In this document: positions 2,122 to 2,600 of the stretch, in pieces
Layout: every line of letters starts with the position of its first letter
Position numbering within the stretch: the first letter of the stretch is position 1
From: an uncultured Kofleriaceae bacterium
GTDB lineage: Bacteria; Myxococcota_A; Polyangia; HGW-17
Assembly: GCA_964618145.1 (NCBI GenBank)
Contig: CAZTZR010000003.1
Location: forward strand, 997 to 64,996
Length of the DNA: 64,000 nt
Direction: 5' to 3'
Translations under genes and position numbers: made by a program
Notes under the pieces: generated by a model
The model's input: the letters and a program-made list of their open reading frames with translations, nothing else
Database searches by the model: none
Told to the model about the DNA's origin: nothing

Positions 2122-2600
2122 ACTGAATCAATCCGGTTCTTCGAAGTCCGCCGGGTTCAGGTGCATCACGAGGACCTCGTGAATCAACTCCAGGGCCCTT
2201 TCCCGCGGAGGAATTCATGAACAAAAGTGCAACCACCAGACGCTGCAGGACCGCCACCAGTTTCCGGATGTCATCGGAATGCAGACCCAGGGTGGGCTCG
2301 TCCAGCAGGAACAGGGTGCGGCCCGTATCCGCCCGGGCCAGTTCCCGGGCCAGTTTGACCCGCTGGGATTCGCCACCGGAAAGAGACGGCGCGGGACGAT
2401 CCAGGGTCAGGTATCCCAATCCCACGGAACCCAGAAGCCGCAACCGGGCCTGGATCTCCCGCAACAGGCCTTCGGCGATGCGCTTTCGCCCTTCATCCAG
2501 ATTCAGGTGGGAGAAGTGCGACAGGCAGGCAAGAACCGTTTGGGCACATACTTCCGGGAGACTTTTCCCTCGTCCTGATGATTGTTGCTGTTGTTAGAAA
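2080..2600. repeat. Degenerate direct-repeat copy of the region 5950-12735: collinear mosaic of six short segments joined at microhomologies
   Basis: By eye, 2124-2184 matches 5998-6058 (2 mismatches). 2185-2212 matches 6376-6412, 2207-2240 matches 6986-7022, 2240-2395 matches 8603-8760, 2395-2575 matches 9775-9960 (about 95% identity), and 2575-2600 matches 12708-12735. Order and orientation are conserved. Confidence 0.8.
2241..2578 (-). pseudogene. uvrA: Chimeric uvrA fragment fusing two ABC signature/Walker B regions from different parts of uvrA
   Basis: ORF 1727..2464 (-) begins [70 protein letters not shown]. This fuses the UvrA mid-region and C-terminal motifs that are found intact in 8424..11234. 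No N-terminus and no Walker A. Confidence 0.8.

Follow-up and report, generated by a model that had tools for sequence, protein, structure and literature searches.

A 477-nt mosaic of six collinear fragments of a nearby four-gene region in a Kofleriaceae chromosome

Introduction

Decaying bacterial pseudogenes are non-functional DNA that derives from intact genes and is lost by deletion, with microhomology flanking the deletions and substitutions at constrained residues (PMC2916853, PMC6054270). A survey of such pseudogenes found 43% of small deletions between microhomologies of 2-11 nt, and most deletions were no longer than 15 nt (81 of 104 in one data set) (PMC6054270). MMBIR/FoSTeS events are discontinuous duplications with microhomology at their junctions, including imperfect 'microhomeology', with one endpoint at a pre-existing low-copy repeat and with short tracts taken from a nearby template (PMC2621351, PMC3161906). 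Homology-facilitated illegitimate recombination (PMC3240628) leaves one end anchored by homology and the other joined without it.

Here we describe a 477-nt mosaic found in a 64,000-nt stretch of DNA (the window) from an uncultured Kofleriaceae bacterium (assembly GCA_964618145.1, contig CAZTZR010000003.1). The mosaic has significant similarity to intact genes in the same genome and has lost coding integrity, and it resembles decaying pseudogenes in its derivation from intact genes, its loss of DNA by deletion, its flanking microhomology and its substitutions at constrained residues. It is unlike them in that the intact parent lies 3.4 kb away in the same genome, instead of being an orthologue in another species, and in that it shows large deletions only (330-2747 bp) and packs the remnants of four genes into 477 nt. 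With MMBIR/FoSTeS it shares a discontinuous structure, with five internal junctions and two outer ends, junction microhomology, short tracts from a nearby template, and a left endpoint at an older repeat pair, here called R1/R2. It differs in having no inversions or triplications, each jump being forward, and in having tracts of tens to hundreds of bases where the described cases extend over kilobases to megabases; its origin in a single event is moreover a proposal. It also resembles homology-facilitated illegitimate recombination (PMC3240628) in that one end is anchored by homology (R1/R2) and the other is joined without homology, but the donor is apparently intragenomic and the anchor is short and now only about 82% identical.

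One of the junctions has the form of an intragenic deletion between the two duplicated ABC halves of UvrA, in that it is an in-frame fusion of LSGGE motifs (20/23 nt) with the loss of 339 codons; it lies, however, in a dead copy and not in a working gene. We are aware of no family of UvrA mini-proteins of this sort in the literature, and propose none here.

The mosaic is therefore ordinary in kind, being a gene remnant or complex structural variant and not a new biological system, but it is unusually legible. Parent and derivative are found on one contig, the breakpoints can be read to the base, and the seeding homology is identifiable as the tail of a paralogous gene. It is thus a clean natural example of bacterial chromosomes making and erasing segmental duplications, and could be used as a worked example or test case both for the detection of complex structural variants and for the choice between serial deletion and template switching. 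Its interest is modest as a natural illustration, and would be somewhat greater if a one-step origin were true.

The mosaic and its parental region

The mosaic covers positions 2123-2599 of the window, in the spacer between a gene for a secreted β-helix protein (604-2121) and a radical SAM gene (2745-4091). It consists of six collinear plus-strand pieces out of the region 5998-12733 (6736 nt). The same six-piece pattern was recovered by three comparisons, namely blastn of positions 1800-3000 against the rest of the window, self-blastn of the whole window, and a repeat finder, with E-values for the matches from 1e-7 (the 29-nt piece) to 6e-95 and an overall identity of about 97%. These comparisons bear out the preliminary description, made by inspection of the same DNA, in which the pieces were said to keep their original order and orientation. 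That description had also named non-collinearity, or complete identity to the parent, as outcomes that would tell against it; the pieces are collinear and about 97% identical. Its core reading, of a non-functional derivative of the adjacent 6.7-kb region with microhomology-associated junctions of the deletion type, holds.

The parental region holds four intact genes, all on the minus strand. A gene for a 314-aa protein (6003-6947) has no Pfam match, and is followed by an MBOAT acyltransferase gene (6959-8377), uvrA (8424-11234) and a gene for a VWA-domain protein (11335-12903). All four are called in an independent public assembly, with support from Pfam for the MBOAT, uvrA and VWA genes, and UvrA aligns over its full length to orthologues (74-79% identity). 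Between the mosaic and its parent lies a trio of radical SAM, CdhD-like and ferredoxin genes (2745-5856).

All six pieces are on the plus strand. Piece 1 (2123-2183, equivalent to 5998-6058; offset 3875; repeat-finder pair D5, 97%) contains 5 nt downstream of the stop codon of the 314-aa gene, the stop itself and the last 18 or so codons. Piece 2 (2177-2211, from 6382-6416; offset 4205; D8, 97%, E = 6e-11) is from the interior of the same gene. Piece 3 (2207-2235, from 6992-7020; offset 4785; D6) corresponds to C-terminal codons of the MBOAT gene, approximately 453-462; blastn extends it to 2197-2239/6982-7024, at 88% identity. The next two pieces are from uvrA. Piece 4 (2233-2367, from 8603-8737; offset 6370; D3, 97%, E = 5e-71; extended by blastn to 2229-2383/8599-8753, 96.8%) encodes UvrA residues of about 833-877, that is, the Walker B, D-loop and H-loop of the C-terminal ABC domain. 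Piece 5 (2361-2570, from 9748-9957; offset 7387; D1, 95.7%, E = 6e-95) encodes residues 427-496, up to the first LSGGE signature, in the N-terminal ABC domain. Piece 6 (2571-2599, from 12705-12733; offset 10134; D9, 96.6-97%, E = 1e-7) corresponds to codons of about 57-66 of the VWA gene, at the edge of an Asn-rich repeat.

In comparison with the parent, the mosaic has five internal gaps, of 330, 580, 1585, 1017 and 2747 bp, three of which are not multiples of 3. In all, 6259 of the 6736 nt of the source (93%) are absent. The alignment has 15 or 16 mismatches in 477 nt, the count varying with the placement of junction 3, and there are no indels within the pieces. Divergence is alike among the pieces, at 1.6-4.3%, which implies one origin and one age for all of them. 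Beyond the right end of the copy (2599/2600) the sequence, which lies upstream of the radical SAM gene, is unrelated.

Authenticity of the sequence

That a mosaic of this kind is a chimeric contig, produced in assembly or library preparation, has to be considered, since the source is a metagenome bin of low coverage (SPAdes coverage 6.2) and the mosaic and parent have exact repeats of 54-113 nt in common. Two other assemblies, made with different software, are identical in sequence where they overlap the window, although all three may derive from the same reads. One of these is an ENA SPAdes contig (L001, 44 kb), which is 100% identical to the window over 14,091 nt. The other, a Logan contig (L002) of run SRR5581382, covers 2541-6040, so that the right end of the mosaic is included along with junction 5 and piece 6. 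It runs from within piece 5 to within the parent of piece 1, both of them repeat pieces, and this fits the branching of a de Bruijn graph at a true two-copy repeat in the sample. The pieces are moreover about 97% and not 100% identical to the parent. Assembler k-mers are normally longer than 7 nt; four of the junctions have overlaps of at most 7 nt and one has none, so mis-joins in the graph should not produce them. Junctions 1-3 lie within 62 nt, so that single short reads of typical length would be expected to span them. An artefact is in our judgement scarcely credible.

Junctions

The pairwise alignment called for in the preliminary description defined the breakpoints, with microhomologies of 7, 5, 3, 7 and 0 nt. 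The claim that microhomology is present at every junction thus stands for junctions 1-4, while junction 5 has none. Junction 1 is at an exact TCGTGAA (7 nt, 2177-2183), with no wider imperfect match between the parental sites. Junction 2 is at GGAGG (5 nt, 2207-2211) within a wider imperfect match of 11/15, and bases from the two parental sites interleave here. Junction 3 is at CCA (3 nt, 2233-2235), within a match of 9/11. Junction 4 is at CGCTGGG (7 nt, 2361-2367), within a match of 20/23, and joins the two homologous LSGGE signatures of UvrA in register; the 1017 bp lost are 339 codons, and the frame is kept. Junction 5 (2570/2571) is blunt, with no wider imperfect match.

Simulated random junctions of equal sizes in the same region had a mean microhomology of 0.75 nt, with a probability of 0.0016 of reaching at least 7 nt. 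Not one of 20,000 sets of five simulated junctions came up to the observed total of 22 nt. A clustering of mismatches near the junctions, which error-prone break-induced synthesis would lead one to expect, is not seen (permutation P = 0.38).

The repeat at junction 1 forms the 3' arm of a hairpin with a 7-bp stem. This hairpin, TCACGAGAACCTCGTGA, is present at 6041-6057, inside the 314-aa gene, and at 2166-2182, with the breakpoint of junction 1 on the 3' arm. On the plus strand it is followed in the parent by a T-run, giving it a terminator-like appearance, and this T-run has been lost from the mosaic.

Older homology at the left end

The preliminary description did not include a second, older homology, which lies immediately to the left of piece 1. 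R1 (2077-2122, plus strand; identified by local alignment and as repeat-finder pair D11) comprises the last 15 or so codons and the stop of the β-helix gene. R2 (5948-5997, plus strand) is the dead, frame-shifted tail of a second β-helix gene, ending in GEPCTTGAIERR and a stop. It sits between the ferredoxin gene and the 314-aa gene, directly to the left of the parental region. The local alignment of R1 and R2 has 36 matches, 8 mismatches and 3 indels, a divergence of approximately 18%. This is about five times that of the mosaic, the difference being significant (Fisher P = 3.6e-4). Five of the eight differences are silent, counting stop/stop (binomial P = 0.027), and this excess suggests that R1 and R2 are from two paralogous genes that were once functional. 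A tblastn search of the window for a second β-helix paralogue finds only the gene at 604-2121 itself, so that R2 would be the sole remnant of a lost paralogue.

The step in divergence is exactly in register, from approximately 18% with 3 indels in R to about 3% without indels in the mosaic. A young copy that starts in register beside an older repeat has the look of a footprint left by an event primed by ectopic homology. A tandem duplication of a unit consisting of R, the operon and the radical SAM cluster was considered and rejected, because R has indels and about five times the divergence of the mosaic; in a simple tandem duplication R would be equally young.

Coding content and constraint

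The preliminary description had drawn attention to a 245-aa uvrA ORF across the fused pieces. An ORF of this length is indeed present (1727-2464, on the minus strand, with a TTG start), but UvrA accounts for residues 1-78 alone. They contain one hybrid LSGGE signature, one Walker B (LFLLDEPT) and GLH, and not the two ABC signature/Walker B regions that had been reported; the absence of a Walker A was described correctly. The other 167 residues come from frame-shifted pieces 3 to 1, followed by about 130 codons antisense to the β-helix gene. Pfam ABC_tran scores 24.1 bits, which is under the 25-bit cut-off. With no Walker A, no complete domain and a sub-threshold match, this is not a functional UvrA paralogue or ABC ATPase: the ORF is spurious and not a gene. 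On the plus strand, ORFs of 99 and 126 aa are antisense artefacts rich in Arg, Gly and Pro. The 99-aa ORF (2279-2578) runs antisense to the fragments derived from UvrA, and its annotation as a gene in the ENA assembly (L001 3275-3574) is almost certainly a mistake. The 99-aa, 126-aa and 245-aa ORFs in 1727-2597 should stay out of gene lists.

The UvrA-derived codons of the mosaic and of the parent were aligned with 11 orthologues. The mosaic is derived at F471L, where none of the 11 varies, and at D473G, where the six closest are conserved, whereas the parent is derived at L448M, where all of the orthologues and the mosaic keep L. Derived residues are therefore found on both sides, and both copies have drifted since the copying. 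On the evidence of this alignment, the changes in the mosaic at invariant residues indicate that constraint on it was probably relaxed. Of 16 differences, 9 are synonymous in the parental frames, compared with 25% expected without constraint (P = 0.007), the sample being small. This share roughly fits one constrained and one free copy; it exceeds the prediction for one free copy, though not significantly.

It is worth adding that at UvrA residues of approximately 855-866 (window 8600-8700) both this organism and the mosaic differ from the EPTTGLHFDD found in all 11 orthologues examined. Judged from the alignment, this appears to be a lineage-specific change beside the H-loop in the C-terminal ABC domain.

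The plus strand of the mosaic folds no better than shuffled sequence (z = -0.41), and the mosaic has no Rfam match at E <= 1 and no sigma-70-like promoter, its terminator-like sites being at chance level. When 40 of the larger ORFs in the window were scanned against Pfam, no transposase, integrase or reverse transcriptase came up; they belong to the usual chromosomal repertoire, with gyrA, a sigma factor, kinases and radical SAM enzymes among them. The mosaic is non-functional, a dead partial copy of the 314aa-MBOAT-uvrA-VWA region. A role as a silent cassette or donor for antigenic variation was rejected, as the fragments stem from four unrelated genes of housekeeping type.

Origin of the mosaic

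We favour, with a probability of about 0.5, a reading in which the mosaic is a dead partial copy, seeded ectopically at R and cut down by five successive deletions. As its anatomy suggests, a 3' end, broken or stalled within R1 or immediately beyond it, would have paired with R2 and been extended rightwards along the parental template, the right end being sealed at 2599/2600 by non-homologous joining. The copy, at first long (up to 6.7 kb), would then have lost 93% of its length in five successive deletions of 330-2747 bp. Four of these would have been between direct repeats of 3-7 nt with longer imperfect matches around them, by slipped mispairing or alternative end-joining, with the uvrA deletion recombining two LSGGE motifs in register; the remaining one would have been blunt. 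The derived residues show that both copies have since gained about 3% substitutions, the mosaic probably without constraint. In support of serial deletion, all five jumps are forward and on the same strand, as deletions give. The model also agrees with the known deletional bias of bacteria and with the microhomology recorded at pseudogene deletions (PMC6054270). Against it, that the copy was once long is an assumption, no intermediate longer copy being known. All five deletions are of at least 330 bp and there is no small indel in the 477 retained bases, where a rough estimate would expect 1-4 small deletions, so that their absence is a mild surprise. For a chromosome of free-living type, losing five large segments in the time of about 3% divergence would also be fast decay, and the share of synonymous differences lies, though not significantly, above what one free copy would give.

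Copying anchored by homology at R would be common to serial deletion and to a second model, the two differing in the timing of the gaps. In the second model, for which the odds are appreciable but well short of even, an end at R1 paired on R2, and synthesis of low processivity re-annealed ahead at microhomologies (MMBIR/FoSTeS or copy-choice slippage), so that one event produced all six tracts of about 26-210 nt and no complete duplicate ever existed. The locus has all three hallmarks listed for such events (PMC2621351): the duplication is discontinuous, its junctions share a few bp of microhomology, and one of its ends lies at a low-copy repeat that was there before. E. coli is documented to switch templates repeatedly, with microhomology at the junctions (PMC3161906). 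The extended imperfect homology at junctions 2-4 and the interleaved parental bases at junction 2 also point this way, as do the short tracts, the lack of small indels, the size of every gap (at least 330 bp) and the equal age of the pieces, though equal divergence, while compatible with a single event, is equally expected under serial deletion. The five switches would, however, all have been forward and on the same strand, with none of the inversions, back-jumps or triplications that are common in described MMBIR events, and the mismatches do not cluster near the junctions, although some 3% of later drift would blur this signal. We know of no five-junction event described as fixed in a natural bacterial population, which further counts against the model. 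It can be put forward tentatively that the mosaic is a naturally fixed, MMBIR-like 'stitching' of six tracts along one template in one homology-primed repair event. If true, it would be a rare natural record of the mechanism, with tracts of 26-210 nt, microhomology of 3-7 nt within matches of 9/11 to 20/23, and a blunt last join.

Two other readings can be weighed. One is that the mosaic is no copy of the organism's own operon but was acquired from a related strain, at about 3% divergence, by homology-facilitated illegitimate recombination. The 9 synonymous differences in 16 are the pattern of two functional orthologues, and one-sided homology with an illegitimate end is the pattern of such recombination (PMC3240628). 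A functional donor would not, however, be expected to be derived at the invariant F471 of UvrA and at D473, conserved in the six closest orthologues; a donor that carried R2 and the operon would have had long perfect homology to the recipient's parental locus and should have recombined there, and not at R1, which is only 82% similar; and the collection searched (see below) has no protein at least 90% identical to those of the locus. We therefore regard an import as very unlikely. The other is that the mosaic has been retained for a function, as an antisense plus-strand RNA, as a small UvrA-fragment protein, or as a reverse-transcribed copy of operon mRNA. Any RNA made from the plus strand, whether by read-through from the β-helix gene or as a 5' leader to the radical SAM gene, would show 95-97% complementarity to the 314aa, MBOAT, uvrA and VWA mRNAs over 26-210 nt, and 114 UvrA-derived codons are still open. 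Against these possibilities stand the lack of structure beyond that of shuffled sequence, of an Rfam match and of a sigma-70-like promoter, the substitutions at residues invariant or conserved in orthologues, and an ORF that lacks a Walker A and continues into antisense junk. An origin from cDNA fails to explain why the mosaic abuts in register on a paralogue of the parent's flanking sequence, which for a cDNA insertion would be a coincidence, and there is no reverse transcriptase among the larger ORFs scanned in the window. Retention for function thus seems to us highly improbable.

Relatives and other features of the window

In a collection of about 15 billion proteins, searched by exact-protein clusters, none of the proteins of the locus has a relative that reaches 90% identity; the sole cluster members at that level are alternative start-site calls of the same genes. 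The nearest homologues, in Myxococcota bins, are 68% (radical SAM protein) and 79% (UvrA) identical, and their loci are not syntenic. This applies to radical SAM homologues at 68, 65 and 55% and to UvrA homologues at 79 and 76%. In the relatives that carry the radical SAM gene, the gene upstream of it is not homologous to the β-helix gene. A scan of genome contigs with the radical SAM protein gave no match, and the best match in a scan of metagenome contigs was at 48% identity.

Apart from the mosaic, self-blastn of the whole window picks out low-complexity coding repeats and just one further repeat, a direct repeat of 183 nt with 77% identity (27013-27195/27427-27609), which lies within a 635-aa ORF with no Pfam match. 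A 24-nt tandem repeat (42786-42892; 4.5 copies, 97% matches) is found in a 332-aa ORF, also with no Pfam match. Asn-rich coding repeats with a period of 9 nt (AAC AAC ATC or its complement GTTGTTGAT) turn up in several ORFs that are unrelated to one another, at 12715-12819, 26710-26806, 44424-44503 and 59985-60034. The first of these forms the N-terminus of the VWA protein, and piece 6 of the mosaic ends exactly where the repeat starts. Radical SAM genes are abundant in the window: besides the one in the trio with the CdhD-like and ferredoxin genes, there are two adjacent genes for SPASM-domain proteins and one for a protein with a B12-binding domain (29392-31574; 56379-57899).
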